A DNA stretch of 64,000 nt, taken from Octopus vulgaris. Its lineage: Eukaryota. Positions 1,098 through 61,645 of this stretch are shown here, piece after piece (the stretch's first letter is position 1; every line of letters begins with the position of its first letter). The stretch covers positions 24,676,001 to 24,740,000 of the forward strand of contig OX597829.1 in assembly GCA_951406725.2 (NCBI GenBank). The letters are read 5' to 3'. The notes under the pieces were generated by a model. The model did not search any database and was not told the DNA's origin. It saw only the letters and a program-made list of their open reading frames with translations. The translations under genes were made by a program, and so were the position numbers.

Positions 1098-1186
1098 CTG
1101 AATGGATGTTAATATCGATGATACATCGTATGTTGGACTCCATCTATTCTGAAGTATATCCAAACATATGCTACCATCAGCGTAGA
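1098..1186 (-). CDS. UBE2A: Rad6/UBE2A coding exon 4 (89 nt; [30 protein letters not shown]) containing catalytic Cys88; the gene continues past the window start
   Basis: TTTTTTTCTGCTAG acceptor and GTAAAC donor; matches Rad6 residues 82-110. Cumulative CDS is 330 nt and in frame. Confidence 0.97.
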
Positions 1187-1904
1187 CTAGCAGAAAAAAA
1201 CAAAGACAACTTTATATTGCAGTTATTAATTAATAGGTTGGTTATTTAATGAGAAAAACTGGTAAAAATCAATTTCTTTCACGCATACATAGACAATTTT
1301 ACAAAGAGGAAAAACTCTAGATGAAATCTGAAATTTCAACATACATTTTATTATGCTCAATGGAGCATGAAAGACCAAGATATATCTGTTGAAATTTGGT
1401 CTTGGAGTAGGGAGAGATGAAAACTATCTTTAATTACTATTAAATGTCTAATTATATTCATTTGTTCAATATCTGTCTTCCCATGCTGGTTCAGATTTAG
1501 ACAGAGAATTATTTCAGGTAGGATTTTGTAACCAAATGCTGAACCTATTTCCAACTTTTGCTTGTTTTTCAAGTAAAGAATTCTTTCTTTATCCTTGAGG
1601 TCTTCAAATTTGCAGCATAACTGGTTATAACATAAATAAAGAATGTTACTTACATCAAAACTGCAAGTGACAAGTGAGGAATCTAAGAACATTAACACAC
1701 ATCATCATGTACACACACACACACACACTTGGCAGGCTTCCTGCAGTCTTCATCTAACAAGTCCCCATGCAAGGCATTAATTTGGTCAACCTGGGAAGTA
1801 TTGTATAAGATACTTACCATGGTGTTGCAAGGTGAAACTGAACTAAAAGTCACGGTTATGAACCAAACTTCTTGACCAGATAGGAAAAAATAAACACCAA
1901 CAGT

Positions 1905-2397: not shown

Positions 2398-3230
2398 GCA
2401 GTGAAAAACTGCCCGTGTCATTTCTCTGTTCAAAAAGGGTGACAACAAGTTGCCTGTCAACTATCATCTAGTCAGTCTTACCAACTGCATTGCAAACTGA
2501 AGGAATCTTGTGTCAGAGAAACACTCTGGAATTCTCACAACCTTATCTGGCCCTCACAATTTGGATTTATCCCTAAATCCAACAGCTGTGATCAACTTAT
2601 TGAGTTTCTTGAAGACATTACCTGGATTACTGATGGTAGCTCATAGGTCGAAGTTGTTTACCTTGACTTTGCTAAAGGTTTTAATTCTGTGCCACACAAA
2701 AGACTTATGGCAAAACTCTCTGCAATAGGTGTGAAAGATGATCTTTTTAACTGGTTGGAGTTCTTCATTCTCAGCTGAAAAGAGGTAGTCACAGTTCTAG
2801 GACAGCATTCTTCACCCTGTGAGATGTTATCTGGTGTATCACAGGGATCCATTCTTGGTCCCCTTTTGTTTGTTGCATACATTAATGATATAGATGCCAA
2901 CTTAAAGAATACCACAATGCTGAAATATGCAGATGACAAAGTGGGCATGCCTACAAAGTCAGAAAACAGCACAGCTCCCATGACTTTCAGAAACATTTTT
3001 TCACACTCAGAGGTACTGAAGCATGGAACAAACTACCTGCATCCTTTGAAACTTCCATGATTCCTGAAATTCGCCAACACTACGCCTGATATTCTCCCCT
3101 CAATACGCATGCACACGTGCATTTCATGACACATACACTATTCACTTTCCTGACATTTGCACATAATTCTATGTACTATACATGCAACTTTGATTTGAGC
3201 ACTGCACACAATAATTTCATTATTATTATT
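2398..3230 (+). mobile_element. CR1/L2-clade LINE reverse-transcriptase fragment, decayed
   Basis: Frameshifted motifs YLDFAK..SVPH, SGVSQGSILGPLLF..YIND and KYADD; (ATT)n-like tail near 3220. Confidence 0.85.
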
Positions 3231-5359: not shown

Positions 5360-6560
5360 TTTCCACAGGTCACATTCACATTTAGTGATCAGCACTTTGT
5401 ACTACTGCACTCATCCATACTTGTCACAGTCATCTCCCCTGGACATCACATCTGATGCCTGTTATGCCCAGTTTTACTCTTAATACATTTGCCCTTTCCC
5501 ATATAAAGCACACTGACATAGCACATCCAATGGAGCAGTTATTTTCTTGTCTTTACATATCCTCTGCATTCACAGCTCACATTTCACAACCATGTAGCAT
5601 TGCTGTTTGTACACAAGCACCTTACAATCTATCATTCATTCTGAGAGAAAGAGAGCGGCTTTTGTTACCAACGGAGGTAATAGCTCTGAACTTTCCCCCA
5701 TTCTGTTCTTATTTTAGCAACTACTAGCAGTATCGCCCGGCGTTGCTCGGGTTTGTAAGGGAAATAACTATAAAGCATTTTTAGAGAGTTATAGCCAAAA
5801 AATGGGGAAAAAATGATGGTAAATTTTTTTTTTAGTTAAAAAGGTCGAGTTGCGTCCCCTAGACAGTCTGTGGTTTGTGTTTCTGATTCTCGACCCCATG
5901 TCGAATTTATCAATTTTTTTCAGAACTGGGGGAACTTTTCAAAATTTTCGCTGCGTTAGTTTTGAATTATGACATTGGGCTATGTACGTGTCAAGTTTCA
6001 TCAGAATCGGTTGAAAGCCGTGGTCAGGGTGAGGGTACAACCTAACAGACACACACAGACAAACTGCCGTTTATATATAGAGAGATGCTTTTAGAACATC
6101 CTACTCCACTGCAAATTAGGTCACTTAGGTAATAAATTATCTACTATCTCTAGCTAACCTCCTGGGCATCTGAGAATTTCTATTTCTCACAGGTTCTTAG
6201 TATCTATTGCTCTTGTGCATCTGTTACAAAAAAGTCCACTTTCTCCAAATTTTCTTGCAATTACACTGCAACTCTTATATAACTGTAATTTGCATCAAGT
6301 ACAGAATATAGAATTTCTACCTACTCCTTCTCTACATATAGAGTAGGGTCATTTTCCTAATGGAGGAAGCATTCAGTTTGTTTTCCTATTTACTATGACT
6401 TTGGTCTTTGTCAAGTTAACTTTAAGGCCCTTTCATTCCAAGTTTTGCTTCCACATCTGAAAGTTTTCTAATTCTATTACAGAATCAACTATTAGAACAA
6501 GGTCATCAGTATAAGAAGATTCTCATGGGCACTCACTCTTTAACTCCCCTGTTGTGTTTC
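5360..6560 (-). mobile_element. RTE LINE fragment interrupted by a Helitron
   Basis: Homologous to 4340-4800 and extends to the CPWE..YTDDLVL RT motif near 6500-6530. Confidence 0.7.
5724..6085 (-). mobile_element. Non-autonomous Helitron nested in an RTE LINE fragment
   Basis: Minus strand: 5' TC(TCTCTATATATAAA), 3' hairpin CCCGAGCAACGCCGGG then CTAG; inserted between A and T with no TSD. CpG-rich, so probably young. Confidence 0.8.
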
Positions 6561-8677
6561 CCCATTGCCTTTTTGACTTTAATGTTCCACAACTATGTCA
6601 CCCTCAGTCTGGCTGAAACTTTTCACCAACTACAGATTTGATCTGTAGCCATTAGTAAGTTGTCTTGCAGGACCTTCTAGTTGTCTTGTATGCTGTATGT
6701 CTATCTCCTCTTCCTTTTCAATTAATACTTAACTAGTACTTCTCTAAATTTCTGACTGTTCACTGAACTATTAAGCTTCCATTTTCCAAAGTGGTTTGTA
6801 TCTCTGTCCTTCTATCCCTAAGTCTGAAGTTACTAACCACTAGCCTATGTTGAGTTGTACATGCTTGACCAAGGAAAGACTGCATTTACAAGTATTTGCC
6901 TATTCCTGTTTGTGGTGAGAATATAGTCAATCTGGCTTGTGTTCCACCAAATTCATAGGTGATTACGTGCTTCTGGAATTTAGTAGAAGAAAACTGTGCA
7001 GGAACCCATCACATTACCATGCTCATATGACATGCAAACATACACATTAGTGCCTCCCCTCTCTGAGCTTATATTTGCAAGAATATCTGTGCATATGCGA
7101 GGAGGGGATGAGCAAGAAGTGTACTAGAATCACATATAGGCTGACTGCAGATTATAGGAGTTGTTAGTTCTCACAGTACTGTTAAAGAAAAAAAAATTCA
7201 ATACTCAGAATATTTCTTTAACCTACATGACCTAATCAGCAGTGGAGAAGGGTAATCTGAAAGTGATCAGAATAAGGACAACGTGAAAAAAGTGGATGTG
7301 CTAATACATCAGCTGACAACAACGATTTCTCTCTTCAAGGAAGTGGCAGATTGTATATTGTTTGTGTATGAAGTGTGTTGCTTACATGGTAGTGAGACAT
7401 GGGTATTGAATGAAGATATGAGAAAGTAGGATAGATGTGAAGCAAGCACAATCTTCTGGATATGTAATGTCAGTATGCATGAGCAACATAGTGAAGAAGA
7501 AATCAGTTGTAGTGTACAAGAGAGACAACTGGTTTGGTAAGGACATGTAATGCTCATGGAAGATGACAGAAGAGGAAAGAAGAGGAAGAAGAAGACATGA
7601 GCAGAGATGGTAAAGATTGATCTGGAGATGTCAAAAAGAGATGACAAAGAAACACCTATAGTGAGATGCTGTGTTAGAGAGGATACAGTGAGCTTGGGAA
7701 AGCGGATATAAAAATGATACTTATTTTATAATAATCATCTTTATTTAACAGCCACTTTTCTATGCTTGCATGGGTCAGATGGAAGTTGTTGAGACAGATT
7801 TTTCTATAGCCAGATTCCCTTCCTGCAGCCAACCTTAACTTGTTTCCAAACAAGGTAATATTTTCTCATAGCTAGGCATTTTTCTCAGAAGCTTAGAAAC
7901 AGCCTTGCTTCTATGACAATGATGCTCATTCACAACCATCACACACAACATTATGATTTTGCTACAAGGTCACAAGTTCTGTCTCACTGCATGGCATCTT
8001 GTATAGTTTCCTGCTATAGCTTCGGTGTTGTTGTGAGTGATATTAGAAGACGCGCGTGTGTGTGGTGGGGTGTATACAATGGGCTTATTTCGGTTTCCAT
8101 CTACAAAATCCACTCTCATGGCTTTGACTGACCTGAAGCTATAAGTAGAAGAAACATGCCTAACACACTACACAGTAGAACTGAAACTGAAACCATATGG
8201 TTTGAAGGCATACTTAGGCATGAAACTAAGTAGTAATATTTTAGTTCATTTAAGTGAAACATTTAATCTCTGAGAGTGCATAATGACTCAACATGTAGTC
8301 AATGCTATGACTTTAAATGAATTAAATATGAAGAATAGACTTCAAATATGCCCCAGAATGACATTACAATCGTAACTGACCAAATTACAAAATTTAAAGT
8401 AATTAAGATTACATAAATGAACAACCTGCCAATGGTTATATATTACTATATACCTGTCAACACAGTATATAGTAATAGGTACTACATTATCCAGCCCATA
8501 CCAGTACAGAAGACATGTAAAATTGTGATGAAAGAAAACAGAAAAAAGTTGTAACAGTGTCCATAGGAATTAAGCACCACATCATCTGCTGTAAACCATA
8601 TAACTGCTCACCACTACAACAAAGTGACATCACGATGTTATCTGTCCAAGTTAGAAAGCTTTACCTAAGATGCTAAG

Positions 8678-8715
<38 letters not shown>

Positions 8716-8716
8716 C

Positions 8717-9092
8717 TCTTTACTTGTTTCAGTCATGTGACTGGTGGCATGCTGGAGCACTGCCTTTAGTTGAGCTAATTGACCCCAGGACTTATGCTTT
8801 GTAAGCCTAGTACTTATTCTATTGGTCTCTTTTGCTGACCCACTAAGTTATGGGGACATAAACACACCAGCATCGGTTGTCAAGCAATGGTGGTGGACAA
8901 ACACAGACACACAAACACACACATATATACGATGGGCTTCTTTCAGCTTCCATCTATCAAATCCACTCATAAGGCTTTGGTTGGTCCGAGCCTATAGTAG
9001 AAGACATTTTCCCAAGGTGCCATGCAGTAGGACTGAACCCAGAACCATGTGATTGGTAAGCAAGCTACTTTCCACACAGCCACTCCTGTGCC
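8717..9092 (-). mobile_element. SINE family A
   Basis: Reverse complement of 61273-61645. Confidence 0.85.
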
Positions 9093-9168
9093 TACAATAT
9101 ATATATATTAGTCGAATAAAGTTAAAATATAGCCTGGTTTTTACATCTTTTATTATGGTATTTTAACA

Positions 9169-9206
9169 AAATTAGTGCTTTCATACATAGTGTACTCATC
9201 AGATTT
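9169..9206 (-). ncRNA. Minimal type-I hammerhead motif (mirror copy, sense to the Rad6 pre-mRNA)
   Basis: Minus strand reads aaat-CTGATGA-gtaca cta tgtat-GAAA-gcac-TA-attt; stem III has one CpG-type change (gcgc to gcac). Confidence 0.6.
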
Positions 9207-9308
9207 CAAATGTATTTAACTGACAGTTGAGTTCCTGACAACTTTAGTACCTCTTAGAGCACTCCAGCCAGCTGGTTGGAGCATTCTAAGAGGTACTAAA
9301 CACATTTT

Positions 9309-9346
9309 AAATCTGACGAGTACATTATGTATGAAAGCGCTAATTT
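9309..9346 (+). ncRNA. Minimal type-I hammerhead ribozyme motif
   Basis: aaat-CTGACGA-gtaca tta tgtat-GAAA-gcgc-TA-attt: stem I aaat/attt, intact core, 5-bp stem II, palindromic stem III AGCGCT, CUA cleavage triplet. Confidence 0.7.
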
Positions 9347-10018
9347 TGTTTAAACACCATATTAAAAAACGTGAAAACCAGACTACGTCTTAACTTTATT
9401 CAACTAATGTACAGATTCACACAAATTCGAAACTATATATATATATATATATCATAAATACAGTGTACATTTAAACACATAAGAGGTGGCCATAATAGGA
9501 CATCTAACCCACTAGAAGGAGTAGTTAAAATCCAAACCACTACAGGCTAGGCCACTGGTGGTAAGAAATTTTTAAATAATTTTTCACTACCCTGAAATTT
9601 ATATATATATATATACATTACACACACATAATCATCATCATTTATATAAAATGTACACAAACAGAATTGCCCAGATGAACAGCTGTATTTAGTTAGTTAT
9701 AAATATTTGGCGTTAATATACTTATATTTTTATATTTTTGTAAATTTATGTTTTTATAATTTTATTTTAAATTAATCTGAGTAACTGATTTCCAGAGAAG
9801 CAATGTTACTAAGGCACTAATGCTCCTAGAAAGGCATGAATGCCATAGTATTTCATGTGCACAAGCTTAATATCATTAACAATGTTTGTAGTGTCAAGTC
9901 TGAAAATAAAATTTAATACAATAGACACTTAAAACTACTTTAAAACATTCTAAATTCGAACCAGTTCTTTTACTAAGTGTAACACATTCTATTTTACTGC
10001 ACCTACACACCACATTAA

Positions 10019-11905: not shown

Positions 11906-12130
11906 TGTAACTCACACAGACTGAGTTTTTAAGAATATGCCTCAAAAGGTAATTGTATTTTTAGCTGTTCTGTATGTACACAGGACTTTGAGCTCAAGTT
12001 GTATAATATTGTTTATCTGACTTGGTAAGAAATGAGCATGTTACATAGTGAACAAAAATACCAAAATGAAAATATACACTAAAAGAATGTAACATTTAAA
12101 TTATTAACGCCATAATCTGAAGATACATAC

Positions 12131-12246
12131 TATTTGGATGAAACATCTTTGATATAAATCTGACAGTAGGTGGTTTGTTGGGATATTCCTCTGTGAATTT
12201 TATTGTTAATTTGAAAGTCCCATCTTCAAATGGCGTATCATTTGGC
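12131..12246 (-). CDS. UBE2A: Rad6/UBE2A coding exon 3 (116 nt; [40 protein letters not shown])
   Basis: Lies inside ORF 12096..12281; CAG acceptor and GTATGT donor; carries the UBC-domain YPNKPP and HPN motifs. Confidence 0.97.
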
Positions 12247-13240
12247 CTGCACAATGAAAATAAAAATAAAAGAGAACACATTACAGAAAAATGATGAAAT
12301 ATTTCATTTCCAAAACTGGAAAAAAAAAATAATAAATAAATAAATATATTAAATAAAATGAAATAGAGAGGAAGGTTTTCATAAAAATGTATACATATTG
12401 TTGAGGTAAGAAATAATATCTGATATAGACACCTAGTTGAAATAAGGTTTGTGTTATTTGCCGATGAGAATTACTGCATAGCAATGATTGTAATAAGGGA
12501 ACAAAAAGGTAGGTACAAAATAAAGAATAGACAAATTGTTTACTACAAGATATAATAAGGAAGAAGGGGAGGATGTAGAGTCAGAAAATATAAAAGGAAC
12601 AGAGTTTGAAACAGGAGAGAGAAAAAAAGGCTAAAAAGGGTTACATTGACTGAAAAGCTAAACATGGCTGAAAGAAAGTTTGTATATCATGTAAATATAG
12701 TTAAAATTTTGTATAGAATTAATAGACAGTTCATTCCATTCGATGGTAGGCCGAATATATTATTTTGTTTCACTCAACAACTAGATTTTTGAGTATCTTA
12801 ATGAAAATCAGTTTCTTGTAAGTAGCTGGACCACCCCACCACCTCCTTTACCATGATGGGTATTAATCACAACAACTTCACTAGCATTTACAATGACCAG
12901 CAAAAGTAAATGTAGTATGGAAAAAAAGGCATCCAGTACAGTCTTTAAAGTGGTTAGCATTAGGAAGGGCATCCAGCTTTAGAAACAATGCCAAAATAGA
13001 CAAACTGCCAAACCAATATCAGTATGCAACACAAATGACAAACTAATGAAGTCAGAATCTAGATGAAACAAAAAAAAAAAAGAAGCATTTAATTAAAAAG
13101 AAAACTTCAAAATATCATGGGGAAGGGGGGTTGTTTATTTTTGTTATTTGAAAGTTCCTACAAACCATTTCCTCAGACAAATGAAATATTTGAAACTAGT
13201 ATTTCTTAAAAATATACTTAGTTAAAAAAACCCAAAAAAC

Positions 13241-17690: not shown

Positions 17691-17907
17691 CCCTTTACCA
17701 TTTAAACTGGCCATATCTGGCCCAGATATTTTACTTGCTTTATGTTCAAGGTCACCAGATCCAACCTCTTGCACCTAGCCTACAATGTCATAAAAATAAA
17801 CAACTGCATCATTAAATTCTCAAAGCTAGGAGATAATGCATGATTAATTCAAAACAGTGTGACTAAATAAGGATTACATTAGATAGAGTAATCTAAATGC
17901 TGAAGGG
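17691..17907. mobile_element. piggyBac-type MITE (other copies at 10019-10233, ~25082-25290 and ~46347-46502)
   Basis: TTAA|CCCTTTACCATT ... AATGCTGAAGGG|TTAA; internal sequence is shared among the four copies. Confidence 0.75.
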
Positions 17908-20900
17908 TTAATACTTTATTAACCCTTCTTTATTAATACTTTGAAGGGTTAATAAAGTATTAACCCCTCAGCATAACTGTCTCCAAATGAATCAGATGAT
18001 CTATTCCATATTAAGTTTGCACTGAATACTTGTGTGCATGCAATTTTGTTCAAGGTAGTTACATGATTATTTTAAAATATTTCTTAAGTAGTTTATAAAA
18101 GAGATTGGTGTGTAATTTTCAGGATTACTGATGTACATGCAGTTGGTAAGGAAATATTCTTTTCCTTCTCCTTTGAAGAAAGTGAAAAGAGAAAAATATC
18201 TGAAAGATCAGATGTTATTTATAACATCTTGTCTTGAATAAACAATGAAATCACAATGTTAAATAATAACTTCAGAGTAGGTATTGTTTCACAGGAGATA
18301 TGTATTTCCATTTCTGCTAGTCAGTGAGAGAGGAAAACAAGGAAATTGTAGTTTTTTAGATTATTTGAATTAAAAATTAAAGTGAAGATATTGAATTAAA
18401 ATCAACATGTACTTTTGGAATTAACATTCAAGTGTAGATCTTATAGTAATTTTTTTTCTGTCTTAGTAATTTCAGGAAATAATTCCTTGAAAAGTGTTTA
18501 GAAAATGTTTCATCTTGTTTAATCAATATATTGTAGAAATGTGATTAATAATTTTGATATAGGTTTTTTAATTCCTTATAATTTTTTTGTTAATTAGTTG
18601 GGTATGATTTTGATTACTTTAGAGAGATTTTTCCACAGGAATTCTTCTCAATTTATAATTCTTCTTTCTATTGGTACACAAGGTGTAAAGGGATCACACA
18701 GAAGGCTTTTTTTCTTTTTCTTTTGTTTTTTAGTGACTTTACAGAATCTCAGCAAACCTCAAACAATGGATTGCATTTATGATTTGGAACTGTGACAGAC
18801 TTTGAGTAAACATGGTCAGTTTAATAACTACATCAACAATTTTACATCCACTTTTCTGTGCTTGCAGGAATTGGATCGGTTTTATTTTTCAGCATAATCA
18901 TTTTCATAAGGTTAAGTTTCTTCAACGATTAACCTTCAACAGTTCATCCTATATCTTCCATGGGCTACCTCTTCCAAAGATTATTTCTCCATGGGTCATT
19001 TGGTACTTTGTTAGCCAAGCATTATCTTCCATATACATTGCAACTCTCTTCCAACTCTATCAACTTTGTCTTATAACCCAATTACTCTCTGAATATGAGC
19101 TCCAATATTCATACACACTAGCATTTCACATATAGCAGAACATGTTTGCCTTATTCTTTCCCCATTGAAGACTCATGTTTCACTACTATGCAACCGCACT
19201 TCACAATATCTATCCTTTGCTTGGGGGATAAAAAAAATCCTTTTTTCCTGTTGAGATAATAACTCTGAAATTTTATCACCTCATTCTTACCCTGCTTTCA
19301 AATACCCACCTCCAAGATACAAGATACATCAATGGAATTTGTATCTTTGTGGTACCAGTGCCGGTGGCACACAAGAAAATCATCCGAACGTGGCCGTAGC
19401 CAGTACCGCATAGACTGGCCTCCGTGCTTTGGGGACGTAGCCTCGTCTGGCTCCCCAGACCCCAGTTGAACCGTCCAACCCATGCTAGCATGGAAAACGG
19501 ACGCTAAATGATGATGATGATGATGATGATGATTGATGATCAGGTCATCTAGGTAACAAAAGCCGACACTTAATTCTAGGCATTAGCGAGAATTCATTTT
19601 TATGGGTGCTTTTACAGCTAACTTCTCCTGTGTATTTGCTACATGCAAAGTTTATTTTCTGTGTCATCCTGCCTGTGATACAACTACTACTCTTGGGCAC
19701 CAGTAAATACATGTTTACACTGGGAAACCCATATGTAATTCCTATCTCCAATGCCCACTAACAAGACAGTAGAGCCTCATCTTATTTACTGCACACTAAA
19801 AACCTTTCTCTTGACAAAGTTCTTTAGGCATTGCTTCTATATATGGAATTCCTTTCTTAATTCAACAAATGGAACTACTAAGCTTCTTAATACATTAACA
19901 TTGGAATTGGTTCTAATATGCTTCCTTAATTTTCTACCCAGCGACTGAGAATATCAGAGAACACTACTTTATATTACAGGGAGCTGAGAACAAGTTATTC
20001 CATACAGAATCATAATGGAATTTGAGAGAGACAGTATTTAGCAGTGACAATATTTACTTTTCACTTCTTGGCCACAAATGTGTGAGAGAAATACAGTATT
20101 TTGCTGTTTAAGTTTTGGGTGGTTTAATATGAATCTTCTTTATAGGGTTGTGATCATTAAAGATGCCCATGATTAGATAGGGTTCAGCGGGGGGTTAAGC
20201 TGTCTTTTTAATTCTATAACATAAGCTTCTGTGTCAGACAATTATTGAGCTGAAAATTAATTTGGGTAAAGTAACACAAACGAATGTAATTACATAAAGT
20301 AAGCCAAGAATAACTCAAATGGCCAAGAACATGAATTTTAAAAATTCAGGTAGGTAATGAGTGTATTGAATGATGTATACAAAAAAGTTAGCAATGGATT
20401 AAAACGTTACTCTTAATGAGAAAAAATATATATATAAATCTAACTAATTCTAAATAACGCTCAAAAAAGAGAAGGGAGATAATTTCAAGACACTGTATTT
20501 CACATAAAAATCTTCCTTCTTTGGCAATTAAATCTGATCTATGAGAGCAGAAAAATATAACAGTTACAGGCATGTTAAGGCTCATCAATCAAGACAGTCT
20601 ACTCCAGACTATTTTGATCAATTAACTCAGATTGAAGTATGCAGAAAAACAGTTGAAAACCAATTTTGGCCAATAAATTCACTTTCATAAAAATCTGTTC
20701 ACTGATCATAGCAGTTATTCCCTGCCAACAAACATTAGAATCTCCCCCATCCCCACCTTCCATCCTAAGCATAAGATTTCAATTTTCCAATTTTCTAAGA
20801 AACTGCCTCCCAATTTCTTGAAATTATCTCCCCTTTCCTCTGAGTCACAAACGAATGCTGCTAGGCTTTTGTTTTCTTTCTCTAAGAAAGGAACGTCAAT

Positions 20901-23407: not shown

Positions 23408-23766
23408 TGTTCCGGGTTCAGTCCCACTGCGTGGCACCTTGGGCAAGTGTCTACTACTATAGCCTCGGGCCGACCAAAGCCTTGTGAGTGGATTTGGTAG
23501 ACAGAAACTGAAAGAAGCCCGTCGTATATATGTATATGTATATATTTGTGTGTGTGTTTGTGTACCTGTGTTTGTCCCCACTAGCATTGCTTGACAACCG
23601 ATGCTGGTGTGTTTATGTCCCCGTTACTTAGCGGTTCGGCAAAAGAGACCGATAGAATAAGTACTGGGCTTACAAAAACAGAATAAGTCCCGGGGTCGAG
23701 TTGCTCGACTAAAGGCGGTGCTCCAGCATGGCCGCAGTCAAATGACTGAAACAAGTAAAAAGAAAA
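23408..23766 (+). mobile_element. SINE family A, 5'-truncated, CpG-rich (young)
   Basis: Starts at GTTCCGGGTTCAGTCCC and retains CpGs. Confidence 0.85.
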
Positions 23767-24855
23767 AGAGAGAGAGTGTAGTCAGTAAACATTGAATGCA
23801 TCAACTGAAACAGCAGTAGACATGTTAATTTTAGATGAGTAGACAACCAATTTATTTTTATCTAAATATCTGCTCATTCCAATATTTAGATACAATAATG
23901 ATGATAATTCTATCTCATTTAATCCACACAAACATGGTTTTATTTCATGTAATCATCATCATTAGATGAAAAATTGTAAAATGAAGATAAAACAAGAAAA
24001 CTAAGCATCAATTAAGCAAAGCCTTGTAATATTTCCCCTCAGTTCTCAATTTTTATAGTTTTAGAGGGTGTACAAAATCAAATGTTGAGACAATTGTTTG
24101 TCAAATAAACGTTGGTAATGATTTTTATTCATTAACTCAGTTTGCAACTTATTTTCCCAGGTATCTGGATTGAAATGCAATTATTTTATCATGTATTGAA
24201 ATTAAAAAACCTTCATAGAAGCTGGATACTGAGACCTCATGAGCAGCTCTCAAGCAGACTATAACCATACAAACCAGCCAAATGGAGGTCTGATCAGAGC
24301 ACAATGCGAATGAACTTTGAGGTCACTTACAACACTCAGTAATAAACATTGTAGTAAATGGTACAATATATGTAAATACTTTTAATAATTGTAATGTTAT
24401 GAATGGCAAATACTTAAGTTCCAAAATGCTAGCCAACATCAGATCTAACACATATTCCTAACAACTTAAGTGAACAGAGAGGGATGAAATTAAGAATATT
24501 TACAACTAACATAAATATTCAATAAAAGCAGCTAGTAGATTTGAACTCAGGATCTATGATTTACTAATCTCATCACATTTACTTGACTACATTAGTTTTG
24601 CATCCAAATATATTTCTGTAAACTTCATCCAAATGATAAAATCTACAAAGAAAATGGCTCAGTTTTGTAGCTTGTTCCTTTAGAATTAAAAAATTTATCA
24701 AATTTACAAGAAATGGTTGAAAGGCAATTAAAATGGCAGACTAAAGGGGACACAGATAACAACCAGAGTGAATGACTTACTTGAAATGACTAAAATATAG
24801 AATATAATGTATACAAATTAACATAAAACTTTAGAAATGGAAAACAAAGTCTAAC

Positions 24856-24936
24856 CCGAAAATCACAGCATTCCATAGCATAATATTGTTATCTGTTGGT
24901 GCACCACTCACACCGGCAGGAGGATCTTCTTGAAGC
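24856..24936 (-). CDS. UBE2A: Rad6/UBE2A coding exon 2 (81 nt; [28 protein letters not shown])
   Basis: Poly-T tract plus CAG acceptor (24938-24937) and GTTAGA donor; translation is nearly identical to Rad6 residues 15-42. Confidence 0.97.
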
Positions 24937-26929: not shown

Positions 26930-27076
26930 TCCAACCCAGGACTTATTCTTTGTAAGCCTAGTACTTATTCTATCGGTCTCTATTGCTGAACCGCTATGTT
27001 ACGGGGATGTAAACACACCAGCATCAGTTGTCAAGCGATGTTGGGGGGACAAACACAGACACACAAACATACACAC

Positions 27077-27137
<61 letters not shown>

Positions 27138-27313
27138 TATACATACATATATATGATGGGCTTCTTTCTGTTTCCATCTACCAAATCCACTCACAAGGCT
27201 TTGGTCGGCCCAAGGCCATAGAAGACATTTGCCCGAGGTGCCACGCAGTGGGACTGAACCCGGAACCATGTGGCTCATAAGCAAGCTACTTACCACACAG
27301 CCACTCCTACGCC
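26930..27313 (-). mobile_element. SINE family A
   Basis: Reverse-complement copy with an expanded (TA)n. Confidence 0.85.
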
Positions 27314-28007
27314 TTTGTTTATAATTTCAGCAAAAGAATTGTTTGTTGATCAATACTGATAAAATGAAATATATTCTAGTTTTCTCAGAAAAATTCCAAG
27401 AAAGAGTAAAAAGAAAGAAAAAAGTTTTTTTTTTATTTTTATCAAATTTGCTTTCACAATAAATATAAAATCAAACAATAATAAAAAAAAAAAGTGTTTG
27501 TCTTTAAAATATTTCCCTAATCATCAATGTTGATTGTTGTTTAGCACCAAGTCAGTCAAGATCAAGCAGGCTAATGATCAAAAAGTATCCCAGCCATGAC
27601 CATTTCATATATTTGTTTTTAAACATAGTATATCAAGGATTACATGAGGCCACGTGCCCTTACTTTTAAGATGGAAGGGAGGGCTATAATTTAAAGGAGA
27701 TTTGACTGCTATTTCTAGCAGCCTGAATGGCTACAAAGATGTTATTTCATTGGCTGAAATTATTACAGTAGTCTCAATTTTATCTCTGTCAAACATTTTT
27801 CTGTTTTCTTCAATATAGTGATGGTGGTGGTGGTGGTGGTGGTGGTGGTTACATGACTTGAGGTCTGGTAAGTGAATAAATGAGGCTGGTGCAGTTAACA
27901 TGGGTGCACGAAAGACAATTGTTGAAGAGACAGTTCCAGCGGTGGTTCTTAAAATGAAAGAGCCAAATGTGATTAATGCTTGGCACAGGACTGTGTATGT
28001 GAGAGAG

Positions 28008-28056
<49 letters not shown>

Positions 28057-28347
28057 AAAGGTAATGGAGTGCAGAAGACACAGCAGGTAAATATCAAGAA
28101 CTAAAAATAAAAGTCCATAGTAGTAATAGTAAGAGAGCATAGAGCAGGTGAGATGTTATGAGATTGTGTTTTTACTTTTTGGAAGGCTTGGTTTTAACTC
28201 TTTTGATTCCAACCCACCTGAGACCACTTTTGGTCCTATGTTACAAACTTTGTGTTTTAAAGTGGTCTAAATTACAACCTTCCATTAAAATTACAAGTAA
28301 AATTGTTCCAAACATCCTTTACTTGTTTGAGAAATTTGACAGCAGCT

Positions 28348-28672
28348 AGGGTTTTAGTTGAACAAATTGACCCCAGGACTTATCTTTTTAAGCATAGTAC
28401 ATATTCTATTGATCTCTTTTGCTGAACTGCTAAGTTATGGGGATGTAAACACACCAACACTAGTTGTTGAGTAGAGGTGGGGGGACAAACACAGACACAA
28501 AGACACACACACAGATATATGACAGACTTCTTTCAGTTTCAGTCTACCAAATCCACTCACAAGGCTTTGGTCAGCTTGAGGCTAAGACACTTGCCCAAGG
28601 TGCCATGCAATGGGACTGAACCAAGAACCATGTGGTTGGGAAATAAGCTTCTTACCACACAGCCACACCTGT
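28348..28672 (-). mobile_element. SINE family A
   Basis: Reverse-complement copy. Confidence 0.75.
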
Positions 28673-29329
28673 ACCTATAAAGCTTAATAATTACAAAGTT
28701 ATTTTCATGAGTTTACTAAATTCTTCATTGTGTACAAAATTTTGTTCAAAAGTAATGTATTTCAAAAGAAAAATAGAAATAAATAGTTAAGATGGTTAAC
28801 GCCTTATTAGCAAGATTTTCCTATTGTGACAATTTTTAATACTTTGTGTATCCCATTTGCAGGTTAAAGGCATGCCTGGAAACAACAAAAAATTTAACCA
28901 GAAAGCTAACTGAAAGGAATCCATTCTATGATATGCCATTAATAAAATGAGTTTGAATAAGTTGATGGTTTACTAGGATGCCAGTATTCAAACCATTCCA
29001 TGTCCCCAACACAACAACAACCCTCTTAACAAAATGGAATGATAGTTGATAGGGAACTAAAAGCTAAGTAACAAGTTTGGAAAAAAACCTAGAAAAATGC
29101 TAAGAGGGAGTATTTATCAAATGGCTAGAAAAGCAACATGATGGGTATACTTGGTTAAGGAAACAAAAGGGGAGAAATTTTCACATGTTATAAACACAAG
29201 AATCAGAAGTGTGAGATGCTCAAAATATCTGGTGAGGATTTGATAACTACCTGGATTGGCAAAGCAGTTTCATAATAAACTGCTACAAAAGGCAAAAGAG
29301 ATGCACCAGAGAGAGAAGAAGCTACAGAG

Positions 29330-36799: not shown

Positions 36800-39200
36800 A
36801 TATTATCCAACTGTCTTACTCTTTGCCTACCCTAAGGTCTCCTATCATTTGGCTAGGCTTGGAGAATCTGTCTTGCAATCCTTTCCTGCAGCATTCTAGG
36901 CCACATGTCCGTGTTACTGGAGCTGTGTTCTCTCAATGTAGAGAAGTAACAGCTCAACCTGGAGAGACTCCTTGATCTCCGAGTTATGCACCTGGCCAAA
37001 TAACATTAACCCAGAGATCCTTTGCAGGAACTGCATTTTGATTATATTCATGACCATATGTGAAAATAAGCATGAAAACTGAATTAAAAGATAGTAAATT
37101 GGGTGGGGTGGGGTGGGGGGTAACCAACCTCTCCTTTTCTGAGGAGTGAATACTGGAGCTAGTGCATTATTGTGCTAGCACTGCAATTCAAGCATTCAAT
37201 TCCACCTCCTGTTTCCTATCACTTGTGAATACAGTCCTGAGATACCTAAACTTGTCCACTTGCCTCACAATACTAATTTTCATCCTTGCTTTGTAACACT
37301 TAGCAGCAAACCCTTCCAGTGTAAGCTGGAGATCATTTTCAGATGAGTCAAGTAGCACCATCAGCCAACCAATCCTACACCTACCTATTGTGATACCATT
37401 TTCAGAACAGCTGCACATGTCAATCCAGTCTCTAAAATTATGAAGAGGAGAGATGACAATATACACTCCTGCCAAAGTCCAGCACCCAACTTAAAAGGTA
37501 CCTATTTCTTTACTACCCACAAGGGGCTAAACACAGAGAGGACAAACACACGGATTAAGTCGATTATATCAACCCCAGTGCGTAACTGGTACTTATTTAA
37601 TCGACCCCAAAAGGATGAAAGGCAAAGTCAACCTCGGCGGAGTTTGAACTCAGAACGTAACAGCAGACGAAATACGGCTACGCATTTCGCCCGGCGTGCT
37701 AACGTTTCTGCCAGCTCGCCACCTTAAAAGGTACCATTTACCCAAACACAGACATCTGGGCATTCATATAGAGCCTTTACAGCAAGCAGAAATTCCTCAT
37801 TAATTCCAAACTTCAGAAACTCTCCACAGCATGTCCTGTAGCATGTGGTCATATGCCTTTTCAAGGTCTACTAACCAAGGATACATCTCTTGGCGATATT
37901 CACATGATTTCACAAAGACTTGCTATCAAGTGAATATCTGGTTAATTGCACTGTGTCCAGGACAGAAGCCACACTGTTCCTCAGCAAGTTTCAGCCCAAC
38001 AATTTCTCTACCCCTCTTTCTTAGACATCTAGCATAGACTTTAAAGAGGATTGACAAGGGGATTCCTCTATAGTAAGAGCACTCTCTCATCTCCCTTTTT
38101 AAAATTAGGATTATCACACTGGACTGTCATTACTTTGGTTTCTTTCCAGAGGTCCAAGACACCTGGCATACACAAATCTACCAGAGAGGACTTAATATTT
38201 CAGGCTGAATCTCAACCTCTCCAGCAGCCTTACTACATTTGTACCTCTATTACTTCAGCCTCTGTAAGGTTATTCTTCATTCCTAGATGCATCTTGTGCC
38301 CACAAAATTTTTTTATTATGACTGCTAAGTCAATGGATAGCCTGCTGGAATACTTTAAAAGTCAGAATCCAGCATAACCCCTGACTCCTCCCATTACTTA
38401 GTCCTGGAAGTCTTTATTACCTCTTAGCATACTGCATGTGTAGAAGGGGAGACCTGTTTCCAAGCCAACTTTTGCAAGCTTCCTTTGCTTGCATGGCATT
38501 CTTAACTTCCCGATTAAACCAGAGAGTTCTTTTCCCACCTAGTGCTACACCAAGATACTATTGTCCACAGTAATGTACAATTGACATCCTCAATTTGTTC
38601 AGGAAGTCTTTGAATTCAGATACAATAGTGTCCACATATTTGTTACTGATCCCATCATCTGCCAGGGCTTCCTACTTCATCATACAAGTCACAGTGAACT
38701 TGCCAGTTTTGTGAGTTCTCCCCACTGTAGGTATTCTCAGGTTGCAGACAACTAAGTGGTAATAGCTCAAATCCTCTCTTCACACAAATATCCAGTACAG
38801 AATCAAAGAGGTCCAGGATGATAACAAAACCTATCAGTGACCTCTGTCCCAAAGTATCCCTATATCAGCCCATTTCCAGCACAAAAGTCTATTAAGGATT
38901 TTCTGTTCACATTATGTCCAGGGTCACCATTCTTCTCAATAACTCCTTTCCATGTCTATTGATTGGTGTGCATTGAAGTTTTCTTATAGGACAAATGACT
39001 CAGTGTTACCTACATCTAAAGCTGTAGGGACTTCACCAAGGAAGGCTCTATAGTTGCAAGGCTCTAAATATAGAGCCTTGCAACAGCCACAGTAGTCCAT
39101 TCTTCAGTCTAAGCTTCAGTAGGCAAACCTTCCCACAGTCAAACAGGGGCTTGTCTGTATCCCCCATTCCCATTGCGCCAACATAGGTGGCACCACACAG
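36800..39200 (-). mobile_element. Second RTE/L2-like LINE family, decayed endonuclease and RT
   Basis: ORF pieces RECSYYRGI..LAEEQCGF, VDLEKAYD, QVDKFRYL..FTSD and GQRSLI; interrupted by a young SINE. Confidence 0.75.
37503..37725 (-). mobile_element. Young SINE family B (tRNA head, Meta-domain-like GCCTTTCATCCTT..GGGGTCGAT..AAGTACC) with target-site duplication
   Basis: CTTAAAAGGTACC at 37490-37502 and 37723-37735; CpGs intact. Confidence 0.85.
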
Positions 39201-39619: not shown

Positions 39620-40175
39620 ATACATTTATATTATTATTTACATTGGATGGATATGTGTCCTCATTTTGTTTGTTGTTAGCTGCAGGGACTTCAGCTAACA
39701 TTTTGGCTGATATTTTCTCCAGCCTTCATCAGGTATCCTAGTGAAATTTTGAACACAACGCTGAGTTCTCATTCCTAAGGTATTTTTTGATGTTATTATT
39801 TATTCAAGACACTGCCTGGAATTGAACTCAGAATCTTGGGGTTAGTAGCTTACACTCTTAACCACTACACTATATGCCCATGGGGTTAGTAACCTGTGCT
39901 CTTAACCACTACACTATGTGTCCATGGCAAACAACATAGTGGTTAAGAGTGTAAGCTACTAACCCCAAGATTCTGAGTTCAATTCCAGGCAGTGCCTTGA
40001 ATAAATAATAATAATGACATCAAAAAATACCTCAGGAATGAGAACCCAAGGTTGGGTTCAAAATTCCACCAGGATACCTGGTGAAGGCTGGAGAGTAAAT
40101 CAGCCAAAACATTGTGGTAACAACAAACAAGATGAGGACACATATCTGTCCAATGTAAATAATATAAATAATGTA
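39620..40175. mobile_element. Foldback element B: two divergent units, each a tRNA-like head plus a degenerate hammerhead
   Basis: About 39620-39867 is the reverse complement of about 39937-40175. Head: TAGTGGTTAAG (A box) ... GAGTTCAATTCC (B box). Downstream: CTG(A/G)TGA-a-GGCTG...CAGCC-aaaa(c/t). The spacer holds a ~44-nt duplication of the head. Confidence 0.75.
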
Positions 40176-42943
40176 CAGAATTCCCCATCTCTAAAATATA
40201 GAGCAGTATCATTATAATTTCAATCACATGATATTTACAAAATGTACTTGACATGACTGGATCTACAAGTTACACCTGGACACCTGCATAGCCGTTATAT
40301 ACATATTAATATTCACATGCACAAACACTGACATACAAAAAATATAGAGATTTACATCTATAAACAGAAGATCTTAGAATTTTTCCATTCTTGTGAAATT
40401 ATTTATATACTCAGACACAACTAAAAAAAAAATACAAACAAATGCAGAGAGAGAGAGAGATAAAATAATGAAGTAACTAACAATGCAGTGACATAGCAAA
40501 TTTTGCAATGTCTTAATATTTTCCTTCTCCCTTAAATTTCTTCTCTTTTTCCTCTCTCCACCATCATCACAACTTTTTACCTCTTATTCTATTTGACTTA
40601 CTTCCCTTAGCATTACACTAAAATGGGTGAGAATGCACTATTGCATTCAGATACTAAACTATATGTATGTCTTATATAACATTATTGCTGCTATACAACA
40701 ACCACTACCTATACTTATGTCTTATATAAACATAACTACTGCTGCACTACAGGTGTAATATGTACTTATGTCTTACATTACCAATATACTAAACTACAAA
40801 ATATATATCTCAACTACTCTGACTTCACCTCACCATCTAGCTAAACCCTTCATTGCTGGAACATTTCCATTGTTTAGGATCTACAATTCCACTTATAAAT
40901 AATTCCAATGAAGATATCCTGTTTCCTGTAGAGTGGATGTGCTTACTCTACTATATAGTTAGTTATAAATTCAGGCCTTGTTTCAACTTTTCTGTTATGT
41001 GTCTATCTCAATGGCATACACTCAACTACTTTAGAATTGAATTAGTGACAGAAATTTTATTGTTCCAATAAAATCCATGAAAAAAAAAAAGAAAGAAAAA
41101 AACATTAAGTAAAACTACAATTTCTACTTACAAAACAAAATACAAACAAGATATTTTTGTAGGAGAGGAGGTGTGTAATCAAATAGACCTCAATACAATG
41201 GCTGTATGATGATCTAAAGAGTATTTGAACTAAAAAGAGAGATGAAATTAAACATGGACATGAACTTCTGTCCAATTTTACAACCAGCTTATAAAATAAG
41301 TAACATTTTGTTTGGCCAAATTATATTAACATCGGCATCAAGCTGTTAAAAGGAGGGGAACTGGAGTAAATAAAAAAATTAGACTTGGTTTACTTTTCCT
41401 AAAGATAAGAAACAAGTTCATATTGATTTATGTTGATAGATCAATACAAGAATCGTCATAGACTACTTTCTATATTGACCTTATATGGGATCTTGACAGC
41501 TTTTTAATTTTTCTTCATATACAAAGTACATAGTTAATGTTTCGCATACTCCAGTACAGGTGAACAATTCACAGAGACTACAATGTGTATATACACAACT
41601 AAACACATGCACTAATTAAAAACAAAATATTTCACATTCAAAGTATTCTTAGCTATAAAACAAAAAAAAAAAAAAAAAAATAGGTAAACAGTTGAGTTGA
41701 AGAATGATAATGAGCACAATACATCTGAGAGTACATTTGCAGTGAATATATGGTACAGAGATCCTTGTAATGTACTTACCTGGCTAAGAGCAAAAGTGGA
41801 GAGAGAGCGAGGGAGAGAGAGAGATTTAGGCAAGTGTACTAAACAAGAAATTGCTGATTTCAGAGGGGTTTTTTTTTAAACTTTGGTTTTATTTTAACAA
41901 TATTGAGATTGAAACAACTCCAACGGAAATACATCATAAACAAAAAACATTCTCTTGGTGTAGCCAAGTGTAGTCTGAATCTTGTATATGTAGAAAATGA
42001 AACCATTTCTATTGGCACAGGACCATATATTTATTATAGGTGAAGTGTATATATAGGTGTCTAGAACTTAATATTATTATTAAATAATGACATTTCTCTC
42101 AACACTTCCAGAATGACAAAAGACAATGTCAAGTCTGAATTTCATACAAAACTATAAGAGGCAACAAAGCTCAACACTGTAAAGGCCAGATTCTCTGTAA
42201 TTTCTACAACTTTACCAACTGAAATAAAGATTTCTAACTTTGACAGAATACCAGTTATTTCATTAATCCCTTCTACACCCATCAAAAGCAAAGTTAGCAC
42301 AGCAAGATTATAAAAATTTACACAACCAATTCTATCAAGCAGTAAATAAGCCAATAATTGAGCTTATTGTGGTTACTGCTTAAAATAGCAGCCAAATACT
42401 CCTTAAATCACATCCTATATCTTAAAAGAAAGACTCATTTGATAATGCAATTCAGAGTACACTACATATCTATAGACAGCTGAACAGCAGTTAGCAGGTT
42501 GCAGCACATGGCCTAAGCCATGAGCAATATTCTTTATGCAAGAGACAGAAGACTACAAAAGCGTAAGACATGTCAGCCAAGTGGAAAAGCACACAGCAAT
42601 GAAGGCTACAGCTAACACTGCAGCACATTTCATCATGTTTCCAGTGTATGGCTGCCATTGTGCATCTGACTTTGACCTAAGATCCCACATGAGGCTACAC
42701 AAATGAACAAAGTGCTAGGTTGGACTTTATCGACCTCAATAATTGACCAACAGCAAAATATCTATAAGCATAGTCAACCCTGGATACATAACCAGTGTCC
42801 ATAATACAGCATACTTATAGACACTCAGGATACAATACAGGCAATATAGATGTACAGCACAAAATCATTTTGTCTGGTCCTCTACTGAGCCTACCAATTC
42901 TCTTCTTGGATATCTTTTTTGATTCAGTTAATATCAGTTTATA

Positions 42944-55425: not shown

Positions 55426-55820
55426 CATACTCACTGTATATATATATGAGTGTGTGTGGTGATCATGGCTTGCTGATAACATAATATATATTAGTCAAGT
55501 TTTTTGTACGCGAGTTCATTTACATGGTGAAACCAAGAACAGAGAGAACTCAATACCTGGAAGAATAAATAATATTTTGGCATTGTTATTGTTTTAAGTT
55601 TATTATTTCCAGTCCTTGACTTGATTCCTAACATATGGCATTGTCCACCTAAACCTGATAGTGCCCATCCCTCATTAAGACTACGCTTGAAGTTATCATT
55701 AGACAAGAATGTAATGTATTAGAACTGTTGCACTACATTGGAAAACCTTCGAGCTATAATTTCATTTTGTGGGTTTTTTTTAGTACACACGCCAGACATA
55801 CGAATACGCACACACACAAC

Positions 55821-55864
<44 letters not shown>

Positions 55865-56078
55865 GTTGTGTGTGTGTATTCGTATACCCCCACACACTAT
55901 ACATTATATATACTTATATATATATATACACACACACTACACATATTTATATATACACACACACTACATTTATACATACATTCTATATATAAACTAGATT
56001 TTCATATATATACACACACACAATACACACATATATCCACACGCGTATATATATTTATTTTATACTAATATACGCACA

Positions 56079-57094: not shown

Positions 57095-57138
57095 CTCATG
57101 AAATCCCTCATTAATCGTCTCCTCGCCGGCGTAGCCAT
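57095..57138 (-). CDS. UBE2A: Rad6/UBE2A-like E2 ubiquitin-conjugating enzyme, coding exon 1 (44 nt; MATPARRRLMRDFM-R)
   Basis: Reverse complement reads ATGGCTACGCCGGCGAGGAGACGATTAATGAGGGATTTCATGAG|GTAAAA, matching the Rad6 N-terminus MSTPARRRLMRDFKR. GT donor at 57094-57093; frame joins exon 2. Confidence 0.95.
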
Positions 57139-58518: not shown

Positions 58519-58646
58519 CAGAAAATTCAACAAAATCTGTTACTCTGAGTTTCTCGTTGTCGTTCATCAGACAGTTTTTGCTAGAAAAAACTGTCTGATG
58601 AACGGCAACGAGAAACTCAGAGTAACAGATTTTGTTGAATTTTCTG
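58519..58646. mobile_element. Foldback element C (near-perfect ~61-bp arms) with a hammerhead motif in each arm
   Basis: 58519-58579 versus 58586-58646 differ by one mismatch; centre GCTAGA; (TA)n runs nearby on both sides. Confidence 0.8.
58591..58628 (+). ncRNA. Minimal type-I hammerhead ribozyme motif (mirror copy on the minus strand at 58537-58574)
   Basis: ctgt-CTGATGA-a cg gcaa cg a-GAAAC-tcaga-GTA-acag: stem I ctgt/acag, intact core, palindromic stem III ACTC-A-GAGT, GUA triplet. Stem II is weak (2 bp plus a GCAA tetraloop). Confidence 0.7.
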
Positions 58647-59601: not shown

Positions 59602-61272
59602 CACATACACAACTTCTGCTCGAGAAATTCTTAACGTAAATATTGTTACATAAGTCGCCTTTTCGTTTCGATTTCGATAATACTACACGATATTTAAGTT
59701 TGAAGATGCTAGTTATGTCCCTTCGCTTTCACTTCTGACCGGGTTCAAACTCGTCTTCCTACGCTCCCACATATTTCTGTCTTCTGTATAATCATTATTA
59801 TTTAATGCGGTGAGTTAGCAGAACCTTCAGCCTCGAGGACAAAAATGCTTTTTGCAGCAATTTTTCCTGCTCTTTACATTACGAGTTCAAATTCTGCTGA
59901 GATCGGCTTCACCTTTCATCCTCTTGTGACCCCCAAGGATCGATAGGATAAATAAATCGACTAGCCCTCTCCCCCAAAATTAGAGACTTTACGCATTTTA
60001 AATTTTTTACTGGCTAATGAGAAACACATAAGAGATGTCAACCGTTCACTCTTCCAACATTTTGTAAGGTGTCAGGGAGCAGGGAAGAAATGGTAATCTT
60101 GTTCAAGCCGCACGTTTTGAAAACAGACTTCCTCCCACCACCGTTATAGAACGAAAGCAACGTAATATATTAAATAAAATTCGGCATACCTATACAAGTA
60201 CCCCCCTCCCCACGGCTTTGTTTCTCAATAACTTCCAAAAAAATTGATATTTTTTTAACAAATATGCTTCAAATGTTGCAGATTATTATTATATCGGAAT
60301 TTTTTGTGAAAAGATTTTTCTGAGGATGGGGAAGGGAGTTTCTGAAAATTTTAAAAGTTGTCTTTGTTTCCTCATAACTTTCAGAAGAATGGGTATTTGT
60401 TTTTGAAATTTTCTACAAATACCTTTCAGATGGTGTTGATTACGATTATATAGGAATTTAATACGAAAAATATTGGTGGACTCGCCCACATACATGACAC
60501 TCATAACAATTTTTTCCGAAATTTCAAGTTTCATATGATGTGTGTCTGTATGTTTGTGAGCTATGTAACAGTAAACAAAAATGACCACTGATACCAACAT
60601 AATGGACAAAAGAACCAGTTTTTATGTATTGATTTCAGATTTTGGTACTAAGCCAGCAATTTCGTGAGAGGGATAAGTCGATTACATTGATCCTAGTCCT
60701 TAACTGGTACTCATTTTATCAACCCAGAAAAGATGAAAGAAGACAAAGTTTACCCCAGCAGCATTTGAACGTAGAACGTAAAAATCAAAAGAAATATTGC
60801 TAGGTGCTTTGTCCAACATGGTAACAATTCTGCCAGCTCACCATCTTAACCACTCTTTATATATTAACAATTTCAAGTAATTGTGCATCTTGTAATGGTA
60901 AATAAAAACCAGTATTTCTTCTGTCGTTTATTCCATGGTCATCATTTACCCATTACATTGTAGAAACCTGACGTACATTTGTTACACCCATCAGTTACAT
61001 ATATCCATGACTGAATAAAGTGATATGGTACTAAATTCAAATATTTTGAAGTAGCCTTAATTTTGTTTTGTTTTCAAATTTATGTAGTATCATTAATATA
61101 CTATAGAGTATTACCTATCATATAACAGGTAACTTTGAAAGTATACCTCTGAGTAATATTAGAAAATATGGCATACATACCACAAATTATAATTTACTTT
61201 TATCAAATTTCTTGGCACATACAGAATGATGAAATGAACACCTATTTTCAATACTTTAAAATGAAATTAAGT

Positions 61273-61645
61273 AAGCGTAGGAGTGGCTGTGTGGTAAGTA
61301 GCTTGCTTACCAACCACATGGTTCCAGGTTCAGTCCCACTGCGTAGTACCTTGGGCAAGTGTCTTCTACTATAGCCTCGGGCCAAGCAAAGCCTTGTGAG
61401 TGGATTTGGTACATGGAAACTGAAAGAAGCCCGTTATATATATGTATGTGTTTGTCCACCCAACATCGTTTGACAACCGATGCTGGTGTGTTTACGTCCC
61501 CGTAACTTAGCGGTTCAGCAAAAGAGACCAATATAATAAGTACTAGGCTTGCAAAGAATAAGTCCTAGGGTCGATTTGCTTGACGAAAGGTAGAGCTCCA
61601 GCATGGCCACAGTCAAATGACTGAAACAAGTAAAAGAGAGTAAAG
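61273..61645 (+). mobile_element. Full-length tRNA-derived SINE, family A (octopus OK/OR-type)
   Basis: TGGCTGTGTGGTAAG A box, GGTTCAGTCCC B box, internal microsatellite and 3' CAAATGACTGAAACAAGTAAAAGA; many copies in the window. Confidence 0.85.

Follow-up and report, generated by a model that had tools for sequence, protein, structure and literature searches.

A tRNA-Arg-like head in the terminal repeat of a hammerhead-bearing Penelope-like element of Octopus vulgaris: a likely internal promoter

The window analysed here is a 64-kb stretch of Octopus vulgaris DNA (64,000 nucleotides of contig OX597829.1), and the question raised by its positions 39620..40175 is what kind of element places a tRNA-like head beside a hammerhead ribozyme motif, and does so twice in opposite orientations. 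An earlier note on this DNA had proposed a SINE-like retrozyme, analogous to the Sm-alpha repeats of schistosomes. The motifs it quoted were all found in place in both arms, but the present study traces them to a different source, a terminal repeat that belongs to a protein-coding element.

The paired arms and their repeat family

The locus consists of two decayed terminal-repeat pieces joined head to head. The arms form an inverted repeat of 100, 86 and 58 nt pieces with a complementarity of 88–93%, as the earlier note had described, except that the right arm reaches to about 40206 and includes a 30-nt tail that the left arm lacks, and that an additional partial head copy of about 44 nt (39881–39925), adjoining the centre, had been missed. 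In a self-comparison of the 64-kb window the pair is the best-scoring inverted (minus-strand) match, and on the host-gene strand its predicted fold is about −370 kcal/mol. A chance hairpin was rejected as an explanation of the arm pair, as was a MITE, given the lack of terminal-repeat structure, the variable junctions and the link to an ORF. The features are listed below, with signed positions counted from the start of the head (PLE, Penelope-like element).

39621..39772, minus strand: left arm, ORF start to tail-less 3' end; ATG at 39772, frame broken after 25 codons
39697..39735, minus strand: left arm hammerhead; G12 and C15.2 changed, 3' strand of stem I replaced by an insertion (39677–39696); predicted inactive
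39807..39884, minus strand: left arm tRNA-Arg-like head, beginning at −5; A box 39872–39862 with one CpG-type change, B box 39827–39819
39881..39925, minus strand: additional incomplete head (about −2 to +42), tandem to the left arm on its upstream side
39920..39929, no strand: symmetry centre, a fold-back junction with a short palindrome across the tRNA 5' end (decayed GCCC-AC-GGGC)
39926..39997, plus strand: right arm tRNA-Arg-like head; A box decayed (39932–39942), B box intact (39977–39985)
39998..40037, plus strand: right arm (TAA)n / A-rich spacer
40038..40205, plus strand: right arm, opening 55 codons of the PLE ORF, frame still open; weak match to the N-terminus of a related full-length PLE protein (pairwise E 0.002)
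40075..40116, plus strand: minimal type I hammerhead of the right arm, altered at three core positions (A6, G12, cleavage-triplet G); predicted inactive
40176..40206, plus strand: PLE 'tail', right arm only
~57095–57138, 24855–24936, 12130–12250 and 1100–1190, minus strand: host-gene exons; first intron 32 kb

Both window hammerheads are mutated in core positions and are predicted from their sequence to be catalytically inactive, in agreement with the earlier view that these copies are probably dead. The insertion in the left hammerhead (39677–39696) is a 94% match to a 16-nt stretch 658 nt away (39020–39035), and may have been locally templated.

The pair lies inside intron 1, between exon 1 near 57123 and exon 2 near 24929, of a ubiquitin-conjugating-enzyme gene on the minus strand. 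We take this gene to be Rad6/UBE2A-like, and for it the pair is most likely a neutral intronic hairpin. Elsewhere in the window there are near-perfect palindromes at 58519–58646 (97%), 55798–55885 (96%, centred on a TA microsatellite) and 17897–17974 (88%), for which Rfam miRNA matches were below threshold. A dispersed repeat of ~350–400 nt occurs in many copies on both strands (8716–9097, 23409–23765, 26932–27314, 28318–28680, 61271–61642 and more), and a fragment at 2658–3060 resembles, by motif, a LINE reverse transcriptase.

With the right arm as query, 4806 first-pass candidates were obtained from the same genome, 40 of which were scored. The exact intact hammerhead core has 3226 genomic copies (reversed control, 0) and a 29-nt head motif with at most one mismatch has 4287 (control, 0). 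Head and hammerhead co-occur, as the earlier note had supposed, in 47 of 60 position-ordered heads examined by script. Among 169 copies not chosen by their core, the commonest core is CCGAAAC (72/169), against 17/169 for CCAAAAC, so that the GAAAC core reconstructed in that note is indeed the family form; the next commonest variants are CpG-decay products, and 41 of the 169 copies have a fully intact core. Rfam and ARAGORN called neither a tRNA nor a hammerhead in the window, in 18 good loci or in two short stretches, and relaxed ARAGORN settings gave only noise on control loci; both labels therefore needed other tests. The hammerhead fold is absent from the predicted folding of the monomer, as expected of a minimal motif. 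The family ribozyme likely needs a dimer or protein help, and it may be dispensable. Expansion of the (TAA)n spacer is frequent, and the spacer or its surroundings often hold insertions of other repeats, LINE pieces among them (L032, L041, L128, L137, L421 and others).

The arrangement of copies was surveyed in the first 100 listed exact-core copies, position-ordered, on one contig (C1). An inverted upstream partner is present in 63, making the inverted dimer a usual form of insertion. One arm is tailed and the other tail-less in 46 of these 63 pairs, a pattern with which the window pair agrees, and the 3' ends are bimodal and about 30 nt apart, with 54 at +235–259 and 41 at +275–283. Direct (head-to-tail) downstream copies were seen in 3 of the 100, and tandem arrays are rare.

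The coding element behind the arms

Translation of two loci (L007 and L004) revealed reverse transcriptase (RT) and GIY-YIG-type coding sequence upstream of the head, and in 28 of 30 loci selected by an ORF piece the head lies directly after the stop codon, with both subfamilies found among the ORF-bearing copies. Walking upstream closes the unit, since the 3' part of the arm is the start of the same ORF. The repeat unit is 2665 nt long and consists of the tRNA-like head, (TAA)n, an ORF of 838 codons and 30 nt of 3' UTR, followed by the next head; the family-majority ORF, whose ATG lies at +120 of the head, is open over all 838 codons. In three copies (L450, L281, L294) the pseudo-LTR (pLTR) flanks the ORF body on both sides. 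The first ORF codons contain the hammerhead and the tail, the ORF beginning 34 nt ahead of the hammerhead core, so that the minimal ribozyme motif of the family sits inside the ORF start. Read as protein, it gives TPDEG...PKRCV, which recurs at the N-terminus of full-length relatives (P0005 and P0138). The arm body differs in length between the subfamilies, and the difference is in frame.

At the protein level, Pfam RVT_1 matches two of five family fragments, one of them above cut-off, and 131 protein relatives were found, with RVT_1 annotated on nearly all of the 120 among them that were listed. Pfam GIY-YIG gave no match in the family's own fragments and matches a relative (P0023); the C-terminal GIY-YIG endonuclease with its CCHH motif is supported by motif and homology. 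Inspection of the translations revealed no Zn-finger linker separating RT from endonuclease, in contrast to Neptune and Nematis; as neither of these clades had a named row in the quick protein tree, phylogeny does not fix the clade of the element. An Anolis protein of 836 aa, which may be the Poseidon protein PAc, is 33% identical to the octopus family. A PDB sequence search returned only weak group II intron-like RT matches, no relative was found in the first metagenome scan or in the viral scan, and when a tRNA-less PLE family was sought in the same genome all 30 fetched loci belonged to the same family. Long copies are ~85–95% identical to the majority sequence and their frames are mostly broken, so the family looks old and largely inactive. 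It is nearly certain that the element is a PLE, and the arms can be described as 5'-truncated pLTR copies of an autonomous Penelope/Poseidon-type retroelement.

An inverted dimer with a one-sided tail is ordinary PLE anatomy. An inverted truncated partner and a tail at one side were described for PLEs by Craig 2021 (PMC8557442), and hammerhead pairs on opposite strands, 100–700 bp apart, with most copies linked to truncated PLEs, by Cervera and de la Pena 2014 (PMC4209133). Frangieh 2024 (PMC11167929) reported that PAc nicks and extends both strands, that reverse transcription begins at two internal sites bounding the tail, and that the PAc hammerhead is protein-dependent and is dispensable in vitro. 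The window feature is best explained as one Penelope/Poseidon-type insertion, made of two short terminal-repeat copies head to head. By extension from the PAc biochemistry, the element's RT/endonuclease would nick both DNA strands, priming inside the RNA at two tail sites would yield one tailed and one tail-less cDNA, and cDNAs reaching the end of the template could snap back or anneal at the palindrome, which would account for the symmetric junction in the window. In two further loci (L159, L177) a short copy from −5 is joined in direct orientation to mid-ORF, as if the template had jumped at the end of the RNA.

These results bear directly on the idea of an independent, non-autonomous SINE or retrozyme, composed of a tRNA head and a hammerhead as in Sm-alpha and borrowing PLE enzymes. 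Short copies far outnumber long ones, with only about 10 of the 100 sampled extending more than 100 nt upstream of the head, and intact short copies would carry a promoter without a terminator, so that some may be secondary source genes. But the identical head occurs within ORF-bearing copies of both subfamilies, the body is the start of an ORF with an in-frame length difference between subfamilies, the family is not organized in tandem arrays, and no other body was found behind 60 heads. An independent family of this kind is extremely unlikely, and a stand-alone SINE or retrozyme was rejected as the origin of the arms, being largely refuted. Truncated products of the element itself would be SINE-like, and no separate SINE family is needed to explain the short copies. 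The classification offered in the earlier note did not hold, therefore, because its head and hammerhead belong to the terminal repeat of a coding Penelope-like element in which direct downstream copies are few (3/100); most of what it observed is explained by the hammerhead and inverted dimer being known Penelope anatomy.

The head as a candidate promoter

What this anatomy leaves to be explained is the head, which is placed 30 nt past the stop codon and carries A and B boxes. Its tRNA origin rests on alignment to the genome's own tRNA genes: tRNA-Arg(TCG) aligned best among 30 fetched genes, which span only six isotypes, and for each of the four heads tested, those of both window arms included, its score was above that of all 300 shuffles. 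Both subfamilies match the A and B box consensus in full; they differ at three positions inside the boxes, each time by a purine swap where the consensus is purine-degenerate. Pairing of the T-stem is lost, the anticodon arm has drifted from that of a tRNA, and the acceptor stem is, by sequence, still able to pair. No A/B-box pattern was found after the ORF in any of 36 metagenome PLE ORFs (those of 80 loci having a long open frame), including six with a hammerhead-like core visible downstream.

The 5' ends of the copies are concentrated at this head. In the 100-copy sample, 48 copies extend as far as +5, and 35 of these have their end between −8 and +5 (28 by alignment and seven fold-backs by eye), over a background of 0.004–0.007 per nt just downstream and ~0.001 further upstream (binomial P 7e-28); four pairs in this sample are the two arms of one insertion, and those copies are consequently not independent. 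A second sample comprised 60 of 100 listed exact head matches, the first 36 having been skipped against overlap and the last four not fetched. Here 39 of 48 end at −9 to +5, nine run upstream and another 12 end at +6 to +17, with one copy (L442) looking misclassified by eye. About one in five head-reaching copies continue upstream. Ends placed at +57 to +71 are a cheap-gap artefact in the (TAA)n spacer and were left out. One near full-length copy (L450) begins at about −2, spans the entire ORF and continues into the head that follows, a second (L161) begins at +4, and two other ORF-linked repeats extend further upstream; of the four ORF-linked 5' repeats reaching +5, only two end there. Many junctions consist of a short snap-back followed by a jump, for which a template reaching about −6 is needed.

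A smaller group of ends, seen by eye at −15 to −30, lies downstream of a TATA-like word overlapping the stop codon, and a second start region around −15 to −36 is possible. Upstream of the head, the native sequence repeats the head start in imperfect inverted form (−14 to +10; 39920–39929 and 39870–39884 in the window), and positions −13/+9 co-vary between the subfamilies (C-G 43, T-A 14, other 10). This covariation represents one evolutionary event and may stem from fold-back conversion.

The sense strand of the 2665-nt unit has no T4 run (P 0.026 by synonymous shuffle) and 31 A4 runs; G4 runs are also absent (P 0.27). A control set of 36 further PLE ORFs shows no T4 depletion, with 313 runs against 287 expected, and none of the six control ORFs of at least 800 aa is T4-free, but two of the 36 controls have no T4 and two reach P 0.05 or less, so that T4 absence provides modest support. 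Transcripts were sought in three raw RNA-seq runs, about 6% of each being read and reads on the long copy being taken at ≥84% likeness. The 6424–9432 reads so placed are equal on the two strands, their depth falls from 3' to 5' like copy number, and 295–379 reads per run span the genomic fold-back junction. Neither a start peak at the head nor an end peak at the ribozyme cut was seen in these runs, the cut-site test being an insensitive one, and the pattern fits read-through of embedded copies.

From the pile-up of 5' ends, the near full-length copy that begins there and the absence of T4, the head likely marks a transcription start. As judged from the genomic copies, the pile-up very probably marks the 5' end of an RNA, and the odds moderately favour Pol III as the polymerase that makes it. 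Our preferred reading, held with similar, slightly greater assurance, is that the tRNA-derived segment acted as the internal promoter of the element, probably for Pol III, and set the RNA 5' end; transcription would then start some 6 nt ahead of the tRNA 5' end. A general point against this reading is that an uncapped Pol III RNA makes a poor mRNA.

Its main competitor supposes that the tRNA is a passenger, a retro-copy with a (TAA)n tail that landed in the ancestral 3' UTR of an element with an ordinary Pol II promoter like that of Drosophila Penelope, the pile-up reflecting either a nearby Pol II start or RT stalling and snap-back at a hairpin. The head with its (TAA)n does resemble an inserted simple retro-copy and its cloverleaf has decayed. 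A conserved hairpin (−14 to +10, −9.6 kcal/mol) lies exactly at the pile-up, together with the palindrome, and could itself stop RT, and many junctions are fold-backs (11/60 in the second sample). The Drosophila Penelope promoter is TATA-less, LINE-like and internal (PMC2377424). In the octopus element a weak TATA-like word ~34 nt upstream makes a Pol II start possible, and a few ends cluster at −15 to −30 by eye. However, some 22 of the first sample's 35 ends do not look like fold-backs by eye and still pile up (P 7e-16), both subfamilies retain intact boxes where the T-stem and anticodon arm have drifted from the tRNA, and the sense strand is T4-free; we regard a passenger tRNA as rather unlikely. 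Another account has RNase P recognize the tRNA mimic in a long Pol II transcript and cut it at +1, releasing a unit-length template. Several copies do end exactly at +1 or +2 and the acceptor stem can still pair, but the T-stem is broken, fold-back at the palindrome requires bases upstream of +1, and bases −1 to −7, which such a cut would remove, are kept in many copies; because of the latter the account fits poorly, and it is very unlikely.

The promoter reading also has a strong form, in which an autonomous coding retrotransposon captured a tRNA gene as its promoter, the whole 2.7-kb unit was transcribed by Pol III, and terminator-like T runs were purged from the ORF. We consider this form unlikely. 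If true, it would mean a Pol III-transcribed coding retroelement, at once its own LINE and its own SINE, and cap-independent translation would be needed. If the promoter works as proposed, it would offer a direct route from PLEs to Sm-alpha-like 'tRNA plus hammerhead' repeats, and the PLE transcription start would be marked in thousands of genomic copies. With its start so marked, sequence data could be used to test the template-end, snap-back and two-primer models of PLE integration.

Comparison with known systems

The octopus family shares with Penelope/Poseidon PLEs, such as PAc of Anolis (PMC11167929, PMC8557442), a single ORF with RT followed by GIY-YIG, the pLTR, a hammerhead over the ORF start, a tail at one end, an inverted 5'-truncated partner and the lack of a visible Zn-finger linker. 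The PAc ORF starts at hammerhead stem II (PMC11167929), whereas that of the octopus element starts 34 nt before the core, and a tRNA-derived A/B-box segment is not mentioned in the portions of these two papers available to us. The ribozyme, compared by sequence, is no different from the minimal PLE hammerheads as characterized in the accessible part of PMC4209133, with which it shares the extra base between 9 and 10.1, the G10.1-C11.1 pair, the lack of a real helix III and the palindromic 15.2-16.2. The part that may be new is the likely tRNA-derived promoter in the pLTR of a coding element. Full-text searches yielded no description of one, and an octopus repeat annotation (PMC13282606) names 31 recently active Penelope-like families but gives no such detail in its available text; most subscription papers, supplements, Repbase and Dfam lay outside the scope of the search and, given the latter two, the family may already be catalogued.

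Outside the PLEs, the schistosome repeats Sm-alpha and Sj-alpha (PMC6765202, PMC2770079) also have a tRNA-derived, Pol III-type promoter beside a type I hammerhead, and, as in elements of the SINE/Sm-alpha type, a tRNA-derived head with A and B boxes and a defined 5' end is present in the octopus family. Sm-alpha is, according to the accessible text of these papers, a non-coding SINE, often in tandem, with a hammerhead that cleaves in vitro. In the octopus family, unlike in Sm-alpha, head and hammerhead make up the terminal repeat of an element that codes for protein, with a minimal ribozyme and head-to-head copies, and the head is shared with the ORF-bearing element (28/30), which sets it apart from non-autonomous SINEs. 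Non-LTR retrozymes (PMC7229834, bioRxiv 10.64898/2026.07.22.740005) likewise comprise short hammerhead repeats related to PLE pLTRs, but are defined by head-to-tail tandem repeats that give circular RNAs (PMC7229834), and only 3 of 100 octopus copies have a direct downstream copy; the words 'tRNA' and 'polymerase III' are absent from the main text of the preprint in the version available to us.

The TRIMp3 elements Cassandra, Helenus and Ajax (Kojima 2024, PMC10886601) are the closest functional analogue, in that they have a small-RNA-derived Pol III promoter inside a terminal repeat, probably from an old insertion. They are non-autonomous LTR elements of less than 1.3 kb, whereas the octopus carrier is an autonomous PLE, and their autonomous partners have been argued to need Pol II (PMC10886601). 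As a coding PLE, the carrier falls outside the TRIMp3 type, which comprises LTR elements that are non-coding and bear a PBS, a PPT and a target-site duplication. The octopus element combines an Sm-alpha-like layout with a TRIMp3-like logic, and is a member of neither group, nor a tandem retrozyme.
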